Assembly (NCBI GenBank): GCA_947588765.1
Contig: CANPZG010000002.1
Coordinates: 9,794-73,793, forward strand
From: an uncultured Bacilli bacterium
Lineage (GTDB): Bacteria; Bacillota_I; Bacilli_A; RF39; UBA660
DNA length: 64,000 bases
Direction: 5' to 3'
In this document: positions 28,822 to 53,770 of the stretch, piece by piece
How the letters are laid out: each line of letters opens with the position of its first letter
How positions within the stretch are numbered: position 1 is the first letter of the stretch
The notes under the pieces: model-generated
Databases searched by the model: none
Seen by the model: only the letters and a program-made list of their open reading frames with translations
What the model was told of the DNA's origin: nothing
Program-made: the position numbers and the translations under genes

Positions 28822-28939
28822 TAAGAAATTAATTAGATGTTATGCTTATGTTCATAGCATCTTTTTAAAAAGAAATACTAAATTTTATTCTTTAGTTTTT
28901 CCTTTTATTTTAGTATAATAAATATAGGTGTTTATAAGT

Positions 28940-29251
28940 ATGGAAAGTAAAAAATTTAAAATGATAGATGAAGGATTTAAATGTATTTTATGTGGTGAAA
29001 TGGTTGAACCTTTAAAGTATAGTGCCAGAGATCATTGTCCCTATTGTTTAACTAGTATCCATATTGATATAAACCCTGGTGATAGATTAAATGAATGTAA
29101 AGGTATTTTAAAACCCATTGATATTGAAAAATATAAAGATACTTTTAAAATAATATATAAATGTGATAAATGTGGTATGATTCATAAAAATATCATGGCT
29201 AGTGATGATGATATGGATATGATAATTAATTTATCGAAAAAGGAGAAGTAA
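28940..29251 (+). CDS. RNHCP-domain zinc-ribbon protein
   Basis: FKCILCGE...ARDHCPYCLTSIHID...CDKCG fits the RNHCP domain pattern. ATG 28940 sits behind AGGTG. Its stop (TAA, 29249-29251) overlaps the polA ATG (29251) by 1 nt. Confidence 0.65.
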   Translation: MESKKFKMIDEGFKCILCGEMVEPLKYSARDHCPYCLTSIHIDINPGDRLNECKGILKPIDIEKYKDTFKIIYKCDKCGMIHKNIMASDDDMDMIINLSKKEK

Positions 29252-31809
29252 TGAAAAAGTTAATTTTAGTTGATGGAAATAATTTAATGTTTCGTTCTTA
29301 TTATGCAACAGCCTATAATGGCAATTTAATGAAAAACTCTAAAGGGTTTCCCACGAATGCATTATATGGTTTTGTATCTATGATTAATAAGATTATGGCT
29401 GAAGAAAAACCAGTTTATATGGCTGTGGCTTTTGACATTGGTAAAAACTTTCGCAAACAAGAATACGACTTTTATAAAGAAGGAAGAATTGCTACTCCAG
29501 AAGAATTAAAAATGCAAATGCCGGTAGCACGCGAAATATTAGATGCGATGAATATTAAGCACTTAGAACTTGCTCCATACGAAGCAGATGATATAATTGG
29601 TACTTTAGTAAAAATGACAGAAAGTGATAAAGATTTTGCCTCAACTATTGTTTCTAGTGATAAAGATTTACTTCAACTTATAAGTGATGAAACGGAAGTA
29701 AAATTACTTAAGCAAGTTGGCTTTATTAGATATAATAAAGAAACTTTTAAAAAAGATTATGGGATTGAACCAATAAGAATAATTGACTTAAAGGCTTTGA
29801 TGGGCGATGCATCAGATAATATTCCAGGAGTTAAAGGAATTGGTGAAAAAACAGCTTTAAAATTATTACAAGAATATGGAACTTTAGAAAATCTATATGA
29901 TAATGTCGATAAAGTAGGAGGCAAACTTCAAGAAAAGTTAGTTAATGATAAAGAAAATGCCTTTATGAGTAAAAAGATAGCTACTATATATCGTGATGTA
30001 CCACTTAATATTAATCTTGAAGATCTACATGTTGGTAAAATAAAAGCAAGGGTGGCTAAATTATTTCAAGAATTAGAGTTTTTCTCTTTACTTAAAACAA
30101 TGATGATACCGATTAAAGATGAAGAAACTGAAGTTGAAGTAAAAGAAATTGACAATATTGATGATATCACTTTAGATGATACAATCTCTTTATATTTAGA
30201 ATTAGATGATAATAATTATCATTTAGCCCATATTTTAGGTTTAGCTATTAAAGATTCTAAAGGAAGCTATTTTATAAGAAATAATATTGTGGAAACATTA
30301 GAAAAGATAAAAAATAAAAATATTATTACTTATGATGCAAAGAAAATAATTTGTAATACGGGAGTAAAAATTAATTGTACTTTTGATGTCATGATAGCAT
30401 CATACCTATGTAATTATATTAATAAAGAAGATATCGCATTTTTAATGCAACAATTTAATTTAAAAATTGACTTTTTCGATTCTTTTATGAAATATACTGA
30501 TCGAGATGAAAAAATAGCTCAATACTTAGGTCAAAAAGTAGACTTTTTATATAATATTAAAGAAACTTTAGAAAATAAATTAAAAGAAAATAATTATTAT
30601 GATTTATTTACCAATATTGAAATGCCTTTACTTTATGTTCTAGCGGATATGGAACAAACGGGAATCAAAGTTGAAAAAGATGTTTTAGAAGAAATGAAAG
30701 TTGAATTGAATGCTCGAATTGAAGAAATAAAAACTGAAATATATAATTACGCTGGGGAAGAGTTTAATATATCTTCACCTCGCCAACTTGGAGAAATATT
30801 ATTTGATAAAATGCATTTAGCTGTAGGTAAAAAGAATAAAACTGGTTATAAAACGGATGCTAAAGTTTTAGAAAAACTAGTTGGGAAACATCCAATTATT
30901 GAAAGTATTTTATTATATCGAAATTTAACTAAAATATATTCTACTTATATTGAGGGCTTGGAAAACTTTATCTTAAAGGATGGTAAAGTTCATACTATTT
31001 ATAAACAAACTTTAACGAGAACTGGTAGACTTTCATCAGTTGATCCTAATTTACAAAATATTCCCGTAAGAGAAGAATTAGGTCGTAAAATAAGAAAAGC
31101 TTTTGTGCCAGTCGGTGATGTCTTTTTAAGTGCTGATTATTCCCAAATAGAATTAAGAATACTAGCTCATATCTCTAATTGTAAACCATTAATTGATGCT
31201 TTTAAAAATGGGGAAGACATTCATACCAAAGTAGCAAGTGATATCTATGGTATACCAGCGAGTGGAGTAACTAAAAATATGCGAAGAACAGCTAAAGCAG
31301 TAATATTTGGGATAGTCTATGGTATAAGTGGGTTTGGCCTTGGGGAAAACTTAAATATTTCACGAAAAGATGCCGATGAATTTATCAAGAAGTATTATGC
31401 TTTTTATCCCGAAGTAAAAGAATATATGGATAGTATTATTTTAAAAACTCATGATTTAGGTTATGTAACAACTTTGTTTGGTCGGAGAAGAGTAATCGAT
31501 GAAATAAATAATACTAATTATATGATTAGATCAATGGGTGAAAGAATGGCTTTAAATACGCCAATTCAAGGCACTAGTGCGGATATTATGAAACTAGCGA
31601 TGATTAATGTTTATAATCGCTTTAAGAAAGAACATATCAAAAGTAAAATTCTTTTACAAGTTCACGATGAAATAATTATTGATTGTAAAAATGAAGAACT
31701 AGATAAAATAAAACAAATAGTTAAAGAAGAAATGGAAAATGTATTTCCTTTGAATGTACCATTAAAAGTAGAAATAGATACTGGTTCTAATTGGTATGAT
31801 ACAAAATAA
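29251..31809 (+). CDS. polA: DNA polymerase I
   Basis: 852 aa. 5'-nuclease N-domain (LILVDGNNLMFRSYYA), then polymerase motifs DYSQIELRILAH, RRTAKAVIFGIVYG and QVHDE. Confidence 0.97.
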   Translation: MKKLILVDGNNLMFRSYYATAYNGNLMKNSKGFPTNALYGFVSMINKIMAEEKPVYMAVAFDIGKNFRKQEYDFYKEGRIATPEELKMQMPVAREILDAMNIKHLELAPYEADDIIGTLVKMTESDKDFASTIVSSDKDLLQLISDETEVKLLKQVGFIRYNKETFKKDYGIEPIRIIDLKALMGDASDNIPGVKGIGEKTALKLLQEYGTLENLYDNVDKVGGKLQEKLVNDKENAFMSKKIATIYRDVPLNINLEDLHVGKIKARVAKLFQELEFFSLLKTMMIPIKDEETEVEVKEIDNIDDITLDDTISLYLELDDNNYHLAHILGLAIKDSKGSYFIRNNIVETLEKIKNKNIITYDAKKIICNTGVKINCTFDVMIASYLCNYINKEDIAFLMQQFNLKIDFFDSFMKYTDRDEKIAQYLGQKVDFLYNIKETLENKLKENNYYDLFTNIEMPLLYVLADMEQTGIKVEKDVLEEMKVELNARIEEIKTEIYNYAGEEFNISSPRQLGEILFDKMHLAVGKKNKTGYKTDAKVLEKLVGKHPIIESILLYRNLTKIYSTYIEGLENFILKDGKVHTIYKQTLTRTGRLSSVDPNLQNIPVREELGRKIRKAFVPVGDVFLSADYSQIELRILAHISNCKPLIDAFKNGEDIHTKVASDIYGIPASGVTKNMRRTAKAVIFGIVYGISGFGLGENLNISRKDADEFIKKYYAFYPEVKEYMDSIILKTHDLGYVTTLFGRRRVIDEINNTNYMIRSMGERMALNTPIQGTSADIMKLAMINVYNRFKKEHIKSKILLQVHDEIIIDCKNEELDKIKQIVKEEMENVFPLNVPLKVEIDTGSNWYDTK

Positions 31810-31831
31810 TTAACAAAATTAAATTATTTAG

Positions 31832-31860
31832 TTGACAAATTGTAAATCTTATGATAAGTT
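31832..31860 (+). promoter_or_regulatory. Promoter of the toxI-toxN locus
   Basis: TTGACA (31832-31837), 17-nt spacer, extended -10 TGATAAGTT (31852-31860). Confidence 0.65.
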
Positions 31861-31885
31861 TATATTGCATATAGAAATATATGCC

Positions 31886-31996
31886 AAAAGCGGTGAATCC
31901 AGCCATTAAGTGGAAACTAAAAAAGCGGTGAATCCAGCCATGAAATTGGAAGCTAAAAAAGCGGTGTACCCGGCCATTAAACTGGGAACTAAAAAA
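31886..31996 (+). ncRNA. toxI: ToxI-like antitoxin RNA: three tandem 35/36-nt repeats
   Basis: GCGGTG starts at 31890, 31925 and 31961 (periods 35 and 36 nt). Each unit ends in ACTAAAAAA. The array lies directly upstream of a ToxN/AbiQ gene, the canonical type III TA layout. Confidence 0.8.
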
Positions 31997-31999
31997 GTA

Positions 32000-32030
32000 G
32001 GATTAGAGAAAACACTCTAATCCTTTAATT
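32000..32030 (+). terminator. Intra-operon terminator between toxI and toxN
   Basis: GGATTAGAG (32000-32008) / CTCTAATCC (32015-32023), followed by TTTAATT. Confidence 0.7.
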
Positions 32031-32049
32031 AAAATAGGGGGAATTAATT

Positions 32050-32556
32050 ATGTTATTTAAATTTTTAATTGTTAATGTTGATAGTAATTATTGTGATTTT
32101 TTAAGAAAGTATGATACTAAAGTACCATATAATAAGGCTAATAAGGAAACTAGACCTTTTATTGGAGTTTTATTTTGGATAGGAGATATTGAATATTTTG
32201 CTCCTTTATCTAGTCCTAAAGCTAAACATATAAAGATGCGTAATACTATTGATTTTGTTAAAATTGATGGTGGTAAATTAGGAGCAATTAATTTTAATAA
32301 TATGATTCCAGTAAAAAAAGGAAACTATAAACTAGTTAATTTGGATGTTCCAAATGCTGATAAATATATTACTATGATAAAGAAACAATTATTATGGTTA
32401 AATAAACATAGACTTCAAATACTTTTTAAAGCTGATAGATTGTATGATTATTATCTAGCGAATCTATTACCAGATAACATTAAAAATCGTTGTTGTAATT
32501 TTAAATTATTAGAAGAAAAGTGTGAAGAATATAATAAAAATATTGTTAATACCTAG
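32050..32556 (+). CDS. toxN: Type III toxin-antitoxin endoribonuclease, ToxN/AbiQ family
   Basis: 168 aa. YCDFLRKYDTKVP, RPFIGVLFWIGDIEYFAPLSSPKAKH, GAINFNNMIPV and CCNFKLLEEK each align with Pectobacterium ToxN blocks (YIEYLKEFDDKVP, AFIGIV..YLAPLTSPK, GLINLKFMIPI, CNFSLLEEK). Confidence 0.9.
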   Translation: MLFKFLIVNVDSNYCDFLRKYDTKVPYNKANKETRPFIGVLFWIGDIEYFAPLSSPKAKHIKMRNTIDFVKIDGGKLGAINFNNMIPVKKGNYKLVNLDVPNADKYITMIKKQLLWLNKHRLQILFKADRLYDYYLANLLPDNIKNRCCNFKLLEEKCEEYNKNIVNT

Positions 32557-32591
32557 TGTATTATATATGCATAAGTAATTATGCTAAAAAA

Positions 32592-32655
32592 GTAGGGATA
32601 CCTAACCGTCAAATAGGAACTAAAAAAGATACTAGAGAGCACACTCTAGTTTTTA
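32592..32655 (+). ncRNA. Orphan ToxI-like single repeat plus hairpin terminator (downstream of toxN, upstream of mutM)
   Basis: The 36-nt GTAGGGATACCTAACCGTCAAATAGGAACTAAAAAA (32592-32627) aligns with the toxI units. It is followed by hairpin ACTAGAG (32631-32637) / CTCTAGT (32644-32650) and TTTT. Confidence 0.55.
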
Positions 32656-32717
32656 GTTGCAAAACTATCTTTTGTTTTAGTAAAAATAATTGTATAATTA
32701 ATAGGGAAGTGATAATA

Positions 32718-33536
32718 ATGCCAGAAATAGCAGAAGTTGAAACAGTAAGAAACACTTTAAAAAGACAAATATTAAATAAGAAAATTAAAAGTGTAAATGT
32801 AAGATATAATAAAATGATTGAAAGTGATATTAATACTTTTGAAAAAGGCTTAATTGGTGATGAATTTATTGATATTAAAAGAAGAGGAAAATGGTTAATT
32901 TTTGAATTACATAATCATTATTTATTATCTCATTTAAGAATGGAAGGTAAGTTTTTCTTAAAAAATAGTGCTGAAGAAATAATTAAACATGAACATGTAA
33001 TTATAACATTTATAGATAATACGGATTTAAGATATCATGATACTAGAAAGTTTGGCAGAATGAATCTAATTAAAAAAGAAGATTTAGAAAATACGGAATG
33101 TATTAAAAAACAAGGTTTAGAACCGGGAGATAAGAATTTAACTAGTAAGTATTTATTAACTAAATTTAAAAATAAAAAGTTACCAATAAAAACTGTATTA
33201 TTAGATCAAACAATTATAAGTGGCTTAGGAAATATCTACGTTAATGAAGTATTATTTTATGCAAAAATTAACCCTTTAAAAGAAGCTGGCAAAATTACAG
33301 ATAAAGAAGCTAATTTAATTGCTGAAGGAGCAAATACTATCATTAAAGAAGCGATAAAAATGGGTGGTACAACAATTAAAAGTTATACTTCATCTTTAGG
33401 GGTAACTGGTCGTTTTCAAAATAAATTAAAGGTTCATAAAAAAGAAGGACAACCTTGTCCTATCTGTAATACACCAATCGAAAATGTTAAAATTAATGGT
33501 CGAAGTACTTATTTTTGCCCTCAATGTCAAAAGTAA
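32718..33536 (+). CDS. mutM: Formamidopyrimidine-DNA glycosylase
   Basis: True start is MPEIAEVETV (catalytic Pro2) at 32718, behind GGGAAG and a TGTATAAT -10 (32691-32698). C-terminal zinc finger CPICNT...YFCPQCQ. The ORF-track start at 32556 is an extension. Confidence 0.93.
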   Translation: MPEIAEVETVRNTLKRQILNKKIKSVNVRYNKMIESDINTFEKGLIGDEFIDIKRRGKWLIFELHNHYLLSHLRMEGKFFLKNSAEEIIKHEHVIITFIDNTDLRYHDTRKFGRMNLIKKEDLENTECIKKQGLEPGDKNLTSKYLLTKFKNKKLPIKTVLLDQTIISGLGNIYVNEVLFYAKINPLKEAGKITDKEANLIAEGANTIIKEAIKMGGTTIKSYTSSLGVTGRFQNKLKVHKKEGQPCPICNTPIENVKINGRSTYFCPQCQK

Positions 33537-52522: not shown

Positions 52523-53653
52523 ATGAATTTAAAAAATATTAATTTATATAAATTAAGAACTCTATTAGAAAAAAATAACAATTATGTTGAACTTAATAAT
52601 TTAGTTACAGAAGTATTAACTGATATTTATGGGAATAATACCAAAATTGATTACAATTTTTTTCATGATTTAAAAATTAGTGATAGTAATATTAAATTTC
52701 TTCTTGATTTAGAACGGCAAAGTAAAAATGATAGTGAGAGATTAAAAGTTAAAAAAATATTTTTAACTTTAGCCATTAGTGGGGCTCAACCTAATGAATT
52801 ATTTGTGAAATATGCTAAAGAAAATTCCCAAGATTTAGAAATTCTTTCAACTTTGTTTGTTCGCGATTTAGTCACTCTAGAGGAAATAAATGAGGCAATA
52901 AATTCTACGGATAGTATTGCTAAAATATGTTTTGAAGTTCTAGAAACTGGTCTTAAAAAATTTGATTTAAATGTTGTAAAGGAAAGAATAATTTATTTAT
53001 TAAAAAATGGAAATGTGACGGCTCAAGATTATAAATATCTTTTTAAGTTTTTAAAAGAAAATGAAGATAAAGATATTGATATTATTGATGAAGTAATAAA
53101 TAAAAAAGAAGCTTATCCATATTTATATAATTATTTCAAATATGTATTTACAATTTATACAGGAAAAATTAATTTTGATGAAAATCTTAAATATATTGAA
53201 CCTACATCTAAAAAAATGGTATATTGTTTAAACGAATATCCAATGTTATATAAACTTTATAATTTATTTGTTTATCAAAGAGAAGATAAAACAATAAAAT
53301 ATTCTTTTAATAAATTTAAATGTAGTGAATATAGAGAAATAGATGATCTAATTCTTTTAATTGAAAAATTAGAAAGAGAAATTTTAACAGGTATAAAAAA
53401 TGGGGTAGTAACTGATGTAGCCTTATTTTTAGAAATATTTAATAATCATAATGATAAAGCAACATTTGATGAAATAAAAACAGAAATTATGAATGCTTGG
53501 ATTAATAATGAAAATATGATAGCTTATGAAAAATATAAATATTTAATATTTAGAGATTATTTAAATTATTATGATAGTTTTACTAAAAAAATAGATGAAA
53601 CTTATGAAGAAGAAATAGAGACTCTAAAAAGAAAAAAGATTAATATTAATTGA
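52523..53653 (+). CDS. Hypothetical protein (376 aa)
   Basis: Clean ORF behind AAGGAAG. No motif recognised. Confidence 0.55.
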   Translation: MNLKNINLYKLRTLLEKNNNYVELNNLVTEVLTDIYGNNTKIDYNFFHDLKISDSNIKFLLDLERQSKNDSERLKVKKIFLTLAISGAQPNELFVKYAKENSQDLEILSTLFVRDLVTLEEINEAINSTDSIAKICFEVLETGLKKFDLNVVKERIIYLLKNGNVTAQDYKYLFKFLKENEDKDIDIIDEVINKKEAYPYLYNYFKYVFTIYTGKINFDENLKYIEPTSKKMVYCLNEYPMLYKLYNLFVYQREDKTIKYSFNKFKCSEYREIDDLILLIEKLEREILTGIKNGVVTDVALFLEIFNNHNDKATFDEIKTEIMNAWINNENMIAYEKYKYLIFRDYLNYYDSFTKKIDETYEEEIETLKRKKININ

Positions 53654-53705
53654 CATATTCTAAAAAAAGGTTATATTATAGATACATAAGAAATTATGTT
53701 AAAAA

Positions 53706-53770
53706 GTGGTGTTTCCCGGCCATATACTAGGGACCTAAAAAAGCTAGAGATTTTCTCTAGTTTTGTTTTG
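53706..53770 (+). ncRNA. Orphan ToxI-like single repeat plus hairpin terminator with its own promoter-like element
   Basis: GTGGTGTTTCCCGGCCATATACTAGGGACCTAAAAAA (53706-53742) aligns with toxI unit 3. Followed by hairpin CTAGAGA (53744-53750) / TCTCTAG (53754-53760) and TTTTGTTTT. TTGACA at 53650-53655 lies upstream. Confidence 0.55.

Follow-up and report, generated by a model that had tools for sequence, protein, structure and literature searches.

A probable ToxIN-family type III toxin-antitoxin locus between polA and mutM on the chromosome of an uncultured gut Bacilli bacterium

The window (the whole stretch of DNA that we analyzed, 64,000 nucleotides) contains two core genes, polA (29251-31809; DNA_pol_A and 5'-3' exonuclease domains) and, downstream, mutM/fpg (Fapy_DNA_glyco, H2TH, and zf-FPG domains; real start at 32718 and end at 33536). 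The original prediction was that a toxIN/abiQ-like locus lies between them, and the domains identify both flanks as expected. ToxIN systems are pairs of a toxin and its RNA antidote, and usually act as phage-defence or addiction modules. Reading from polA towards mutM, all on the plus strand, we found promoter-like elements, a leader hairpin, a tandem array of toxI repeats, a second hairpin, a ribosome-binding site, the toxN open reading frame, and the remnant of a second, different toxI. The order of array, hairpin, ribosome-binding site, and reading frame is the layout of repeats, terminator, and endoribonuclease that had been described as the hallmark of type III systems. We also note that the polA ATG is overlapped by the stop codon of a gene for a 107-amino-acid RNHCP-domain protein (28928-29251; PF12647, E = 1.9e-26).

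The toxN gene (32050-32556, plus strand) encodes a putative endoribonuclease of the ToxN/AbiQ family. It was expected to be a 168-aa protein 3' of the hairpin, and it is: the reading frame starts with ATG, is full length, and has no internal stops. A ribosome-binding site can be read directly 8 nt upstream of the ATG (GGGGG, 32037-32041, plus strand). The Pfam search that had been suggested as a check gave a match to ToxN_toxin (PF13958) with E = 2.9e-50 and 171 bits (the cut-off is 25) that covers positions 3-159 of the 159 in the profile. PADLOC's model of AbiQ also matches (E = 2.3e-36), which shows homology, not phenotype. A search of NCBIfam with the protein gave no match. Among sequences in the PDB, the best match is ToxN from Bacillus thuringiensis (4ATO; E = 6.5e-23, residues 10-163), followed by ToxN from Pectobacterium atrosepticum, ToxN from E. 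coli, and AbiQ, with E-values rising to 9e-9.

The predicted structure agrees with these assignments. The AlphaFold model (pLDDT 87.4, pTM 0.83) has the ToxN fold, a type defined by a twisted six-stranded beta core and a long kinked helix, and its four top matches by Foldseek are the structures of just these four proteins, 4ATO, 7D8O, 2XD0, and 4GLK (TM-scores of 0.76-0.79, E about 1e-11 to 1e-9). The fifth, CptN (4RMO), is distant, and the MazF toxins are far behind. We considered whether the locus might belong to the CptIN family instead and rejected this, given the TM-score of 0.53 and 16% identity to CptN and repeats of 35-36 nt, not about 40-50 nt.

All four of the motif blocks that had been claimed as similar to Pectobacterium ToxN were found, and they align with the P. 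atrosepticum protein (ToxN_Pa). The active site of ToxN_Pa includes Lys33, Thr52, Ser53, and Lys55 (PMC5086642, PMC8860590), which align to Arg35, Ser54, Ser55, and Lys57 of our protein. Both kinds of replacement are documented as functional variants of the active site (PMC8860590, PMC5086642): lysine 33 is also replaced by arginine in clusters of E. coli ToxN (PMC8860590), and serine in place of threonine is functional in AbiQ (PMC5086642). Across 28 distinct homologues from related genomes, Arg35, Ser55, Lys57, Gly39, and the APL strand are invariant. Tyr29 of ToxN_Pa is not conserved, as our protein has asparagine at the aligned position.

Upstream of toxN, direct reading of the sequence gave three tandem repeats at 31890-31996, with the same lengths and coordinates as in the original prediction: repeat 1 (31890-31924, 35 nt, GCGGTGAATCCAGCCATTAAGTGGAAACTAAAAAA), repeat 2 (31925-31960, 36 nt), and repeat 3 (31961-31996, 36 nt), all on the plus strand. 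Tandem Repeats Finder reports 31886-31997, with a period of 36, 3.1 copies, 84% matches, and a score of 150. All three repeats were also found by nhmmer with a profile of the toxI unit (E = 6e-7 for repeat 1), and repeat 3 has support from covariation as well (see below). The repeats were said to share their 3' ends. All three do end in CTAAAAAA, but repeat 2 ends in GCTAAAAAA, not ACTAAAAAA. Within the 1.27-Mb genome, just four sites match the unit profile, so chance and an AT-rich composition do not explain the array.

A search of Rfam at a permissive E-value, across 31500-33000, gave no match, so the earlier comment that protein-centric annotation would miss the RNA antitoxin was fair. The null results from Rfam (for the RNA) and NCBIfam (for the protein) reflect what these libraries cover and are not evidence against membership in the family. 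Because no curated model of ToxI matched, we defined the toxI RNA from its relatives. In each of the related loci that we inspected, a promoter, a leader hairpin, about 3-5 units of 33-37 nt that are related to our units, and another hairpin all lie upstream of toxN.

The toxI units covary as an H-type pseudoknot, like known ToxI. In our units, the first stem (H1) is G3G4U5 paired with G13C14C15, and the second (H2) is U9C10C11(A12) paired with (U22)G23G24A25. If only nested pairs are allowed, then one unit on its own is predicted to fold no more stably than shuffled sequences do (z = +0.2). A pseudoknot should behave in this way, so we relied on covariation under an explicit pseudoknot model, using a MAFFT alignment of 62 distinct units from related loci. 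The proposed pairs form in 84% of cells, versus 74% if columns are shuffled, and the covariation score is 0.323 versus 0.148; neither value was reached by any of 500 shuffles. (The alignment was used without re-fitting to the structure, and a few units whose loops are longer are out of register in it, so the pairing counts for H1 are lowered.) In controls where the 3' partner was slid along the unit, pairing was at most 57%. Double changes were seen in five of the seven pairs; for instance, pair 10-28 is UA in 23 units, CG in 21, GC in 9, and UG in 6. Within our own array, units 1 and 2 have UCCA/UGGA in the second stem and unit 3 has CCCG/UGGG; all three units retain both stems, unit 3 by a compensatory double change. 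The lengths of the successive stems and loops (3 bp, 3 nt, 3-4 bp, 0-1 nt, 3 bp, and 6-7 nt) fit the "group I" pattern of ToxI (PMC3401426). They also agree with the general architecture of an H-type ToxI pseudoknot, in which two nested stems of 3-4 bp are combined with a 1a-2a loop of 3-4 nt, a 2a-1b loop of 0-2 nt, and a longer 1b-2b loop.

Among the single-stranded parts of the 62 aligned units, only the junction is near-invariant, with AAA at the end of one unit and G at the start of the next. It had been suggested that an A-rich junction fits the cleavage preference of ToxN, and the AAA-G junction is compatible with the published specificities (A^AAAA for ToxN from B. thuringiensis and AA^AK for ToxN_Pa; PMC5408214). 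The junction is AACAAAG or AAUAAAG in some congeners, so five consecutive A's do not seem to be required, and we predict that ToxN cuts within the last AAA|G. We also asked if the conservation of toxI is unusual when compared with that of toxN, and it is not: DNA identity to the orthologous loci is 77-83% for toxI and 72-76% for toxN.

The promoter was described as a consensus promoter at 31832-31860, and this was an overstatement. The -35 hexamer (TTGACA, 31832-31837, plus strand) does match the consensus, but at the 17-nt spacing, the -10 hexamer is TAAGTT, which matches at only 3 of 6 positions, and a scan for consensus promoter elements did not list it. There is a TG at 31852-31853, which makes an extended -10 element (TGaTAAGTT, 31852-31860, plus strand). 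The position of the promoter is supported by comparison to orthologous loci, which have TTGACA-17-TATATT at an equal distance from the leader hairpin. TTGACA is found 29 nt 5' of this hairpin in three related loci with toxN sequences (L015, L016, and L018) and also in L019, an array without toxN; L021, which has a different type of toxI at the same site, has TTGATT instead.

The leader hairpin itself (31867-31884, plus strand) lies at the predicted start of the transcript. It is a perfect 7-bp stem (GCAUAUA-GAAA-UAUAUGC; -6.7 kcal/mol, z = -4.0), and in every related toxI locus of the genus a hairpin begins 6-7 nt past the -10 element. The pairing is kept while the letters vary (GCATAA..TTATGC versus ACATAA..TTATGT), by swaps of G-C and A-U pairs. 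We did not find any description of this hairpin in the papers that we consulted. It may be a 5' stabilizer of the toxI precursor.

Between toxI and toxN, a hairpin terminator had been proposed at 32000-32030. There is a 10-bp hairpin (31999-32024, plus strand; -13.4 kcal/mol, z = -4.5) that ends 25 nt 5' of the ATG, but it is followed by UUUAAUU, which is a poor U-tract. It fails the canonical rule for intrinsic terminators on the plus strand, and our terminator scan listed it on the minus strand only. By sequence, it looks like a leaky terminator, as the layout of ToxIN needs.

In many of the relatives (L016, L018, L006, L007, and L009), the stretch that separates toxN from the toxI terminator contains an additional -10 element of the TATAAT type, which suggests a separate promoter for toxN. 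Our locus, L015, and L021 do not have this element, so toxN in these three must depend on read-through.

ToxN is very common in this genus. We found homologues in 16 of the 24 genomes that we sampled, often in multiple copies (up to five in one 1.1-Mb genome), whereas 16 genomes belonging to other families in the class had none. The relatives in the public records are MAGs of "uncultured Bacilli bacterium" from human and rabbit gut. Our toxIN is accessory, and the region between polA and mutM is a variable insertion slot. We examined the mutM loci of 30 congeners, and in 13 of them just 11-18 nt separate the polA stop codon from the mutM ATG. In others, the slot carries HExxH proteins that have no match in Pfam, a peptidase C26/GATase, an AAA_14/DUF4143 ATPase, a repeat protein, or an LRR protein. 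A more distant congener (G013) has toxN immediately 5' of mutM.

Even within the closest subclade, whose MutM proteins are 80-82% identical, the slot exists in several states. L016 and L018 have an intact, orthologous toxIN with ToxN that is 62-65% identical to ours, and in a tree of ToxN proteins these two and our protein, which share this site, form one clade (support 97/92). In L015, from the closest relative (G052), the three toxI units are intact and toxN is split into ToxN-like reading frames of 73 and 108 amino acids by a 28-nt tandem duplication (gap coordinates 429-484); either true decay or an error of assembly could account for this. In L019 (from G054), there is a five-unit toxI array with a promoter, leader, and terminator, but without toxN, and a peptidase C26-like gene is next to it. 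Both L015 and L019 contain a unit that is identical to our unit 3. In L021, the slot holds a toxIN of a different lineage and another peptidase C26-like gene, which we assigned to this family by scanning its 211-aa homologue from L019. There have thus been at least two independent acquisitions of toxIN at this slot.

In L016 and L018, toxN abuts mutM, and there is a TATAAT 3' of the toxI terminator. In our genome and in L015, a conserved element (TTTTGTTTTA...TTGTATAAT) lies ahead of mutM instead. More precisely, 32670-32717 of the window is TTTTGTTTTA-TAAAAATAATTGTATAAT plus a ribosome-binding site, and this arrangement is also found before mutM in L015 and L020, and before the cargo gene in L019. 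It resembles a module in L016 and L018, made of a terminator tail plus TATAAT, that is 5' of toxN; this hints at a cassette promoter having been borrowed by mutM. The expression of mutM seems to have been preserved in two ways, by the TATAAT in L016 and L018 or by the TTTTGTTTTA element in our genome and L015.

Our genome also contains toxI sequences that are not followed by toxN. One of these is the second toxI remnant, between toxN and mutM (32569-32655, plus strand), which was identified by direct reading, the unit profile, folding, and the terminator scan. It has its own leader hairpin (32569-32584), a single 36-nt unit (32592-32627), and a terminator (32631-32650) with a T-run; including the T-run (32631-32655), this terminator was rated as good. 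Compared with toxI of L021, its unit is 89% identical and its terminator is 84% identical. Pseudoknot pairing is retained in this unit, via a compensatory CCUA/UAGG. There is no toxN after the remnant, and mutM is next. It looks like the stump of a second cassette that was displaced, and it probably doubles as the 3' end of the toxN mRNA.

The unit profile found two more toxI loci elsewhere in the genome. A complete solo toxI gene at about 53650-53770 of the window has TTGACA-17-TATATT, a leader (ACATAA-GAAA-TTATGT), a 37-nt unit (53706-53742), and a terminator, and it lies 5' of the next reading frame, with no toxN. The other is on the minus strand of contig C41 (bases 106-300), with a promoter, leader hairpins, three units of the type GCGGTGATTCC(G/C)ACC, and a terminator that is only 75 nt from the end of the contig, so any toxN that follows would lie beyond it. 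Only one ToxN gene is detectable in this assembly, which is 92% complete.

Our three toxin-less copies (32569-32655, about 53650-53770, and C41) and the array of L019 could be explained if toxIN cassettes are modular units, each made of a promoter, leader hairpin, repeats, terminator, and toxin, that are repeatedly swapped, stacked, or partially deleted at set positions between core genes (the polA-mutM slot being one of these), with the toxin-less toxI kept because it has a function and not just left over as a scar. We consider this to be rather unlikely. If it is true, then the toxin-less toxI could conceivably be decoys that give immunity against related ToxN proteins on phages or plasmids. 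Alternatively, the unit 3' of toxN, which is on the toxN transcript and is flanked by ToxN-type cut sites, could let ToxN trim and destabilize its own mRNA.

The same observations raise the question of whether our locus is a recently inactivated relic, with an intact sequence that is no longer expressed or toxic and is heading for the decay that is seen in sister genomes. The -10 element is TAAGTT at the 17-nt spacing where all of the relatives have TATATT, the orthologue in L015 is frameshifted, toxN has been lost from L019, and toxin-less copies of toxI are frequent in our genome. However, toxN is full length and free of stop codons, and every catalytic or core residue that does not vary among the 28 homologues is retained. 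The three units keep both pseudoknot stems, including by the compensatory double change in unit 3, and the weak -10 hexamer is accompanied by the TG of an extended -10 motif and by a strong ribosome-binding site. We therefore view inactivation as quite improbable.

Another explanation, that the repeats are a cis-regulatory leader (an attenuator or a protein-binding array) of a housekeeping ribonuclease that is linked to polA and mutM, would fit with the location inside what is otherwise a polA-mutM operon, but we give it almost no credence: the cassette is missing from 13 of the 30 polA-mutM sites in congeners, so it is not tied to either gene, and it also occurs at unrelated sites (near look-alikes of dnaG, glyQS, and sufS, as judged from their first residues only), while the unit has the covarying pseudoknot architecture of ToxI and the protein is ToxN by sequence and by fold, in a family whose repeats are a proven antitoxin (PMC3401426, PMC5086642). 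For the same reason (absent in many congeners and located elsewhere in others), we rejected the idea of a functional tie between the repeats and polA or mutM.

We are confident that this is a bona fide chromosomal type III toxin-antitoxin locus of the ToxIN family. Blower et al. (2012) identified toxIN loci by a toxN homologue with a palindromic terminator upstream of it and, further upstream, an array of tandem repeats, with a promoter as a preferred feature (PMC3401426), and the toxN homologue, the upstream hairpin, and the tandem array are all present here. A known family gains a member; it is not a new kind of system. Because toxN is split in L015 and the array of L019 lacks toxN, there is decay in this lineage, and we consider it likely but not certain that our copy is active.

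How the locus would work can be proposed by homology with ToxIN_Pa, ToxIN_Bt (from B. thuringiensis), and ToxIN_Ec (from E. coli) (PMC3401426, PMC5086642, PMC8860590). The putative promoter, TTGACA-17-TGnTAAGTT, would start a transcript at about 31867 that comprises the 5' hairpin, three toxI units, and the hairpin terminator. Given the poor U-tract, most transcripts would stop at the hairpin and some would read through into toxN, so the RNA antitoxin would be in excess over the toxin. ToxN, as a sequence-specific endoribonuclease, would cut the precursor in the A-run (AAA|G) to give pseudoknots of 35-36 nt, and these would bind ToxN head-to-tail, blocking Arg35, Ser54, Ser55, and Lys57 in a closed RNA-protein complex. 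In the toxIN family, the single units are released with a 2',3'-cyclic phosphate and the closed complex has 3:3 stoichiometry. If the synthesis of toxI stops, for example due to the shut-off of transcription by a phage or to loss of the locus, then the labile RNA would decay. Free ToxN would then cut A-rich RNAs of the cell and the phage and halt growth, leading to abortive infection or addiction. It is only by analogy with these systems that we infer this ToxN to be toxic and to be neutralized by toxI, and the same applies to its cut site, stoichiometry, and role in the cell.

The locus gives an uncultured lineage of Bacilli from the gut, whose genomes are about 1.2 Mb, a well-supported toxIN with an RNA antitoxin that was not annotated. 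In this lineage, toxIN is newly described and ToxN homologues are very frequent. Our understanding of how type III systems work is unchanged. The 62 natural variants of the unit are a ready covariation set for the ToxI pseudoknot, and the intact, broken, toxin-less, and swapped cassettes at a single slot are material for studying the turnover of type III systems. We find this turnover, along with the toxin-less copies of toxI, to be more interesting than the toxIN locus itself.

Among the characterized systems, the closest solved structure, by sequence and by fold, is that of ToxIN_Bt, from plasmid pAW63 of B. thuringiensis (4ATO; TM-score 0.76 for the fold, 32% identity). It is also from a Firmicute and has a short array (about three units of 34-36 nt), and the A-run at our junctions would suit its preference for cutting at A^AAAA (PMC5408214). 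In contrast to our locus, which is chromosomal and between core genes, ToxIN_Bt is on a plasmid, and its unit has another sequence; also, the junction in this genus is AAAG rather than five A's, so the exact cut may differ. ToxIN_Pa, from plasmid pECA1039 of P. atrosepticum (2XD0, 2XDB, and 2XDD), shares the Pfam family and the fold (E = 3.7e-16, TM-score 0.78), equivalent active-site residues, a 36-nt unit that forms an H-type pseudoknot with two stems of 3-4 bp, and the order of promoter (putative in our locus), repeats, terminator, and toxN (PMC3401426). It differs in having 5.5 repeats instead of 3, Lys33 instead of Arg35, and Tyr29 instead of asparagine, and in being on the plasmid of a Gram-negative bacterium; anti-phage activity is proven for ToxIN_Pa. 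AbiQ/antiQ from plasmid pSRQ900 of Lactococcus lactis (4GLK) is similar in fold (TM-score 0.78) and in the PADLOC match (E = 2.3e-36), and its catalytic Ser51 (PMC5086642) corresponds to the conserved pair of serines in our protein, but its sequence is more distant (E = 9e-9, 25% identity). In collections of plasmids and phages, the nearest matches to our ToxN are 41-46% identical over about 90% of its length. These include proteins annotated as ToxN/AbiQ from a plasmid of Fusobacterium polymorphum and from plasmids of Clostridium botulinum, as well as unannotated homologues from Clostridium phage D-1873 and Clostridioides phage pCD1602_4. Whereas those genes are on mobile elements, our toxN and its relatives within the genus (50-65% identity) are chromosomal.
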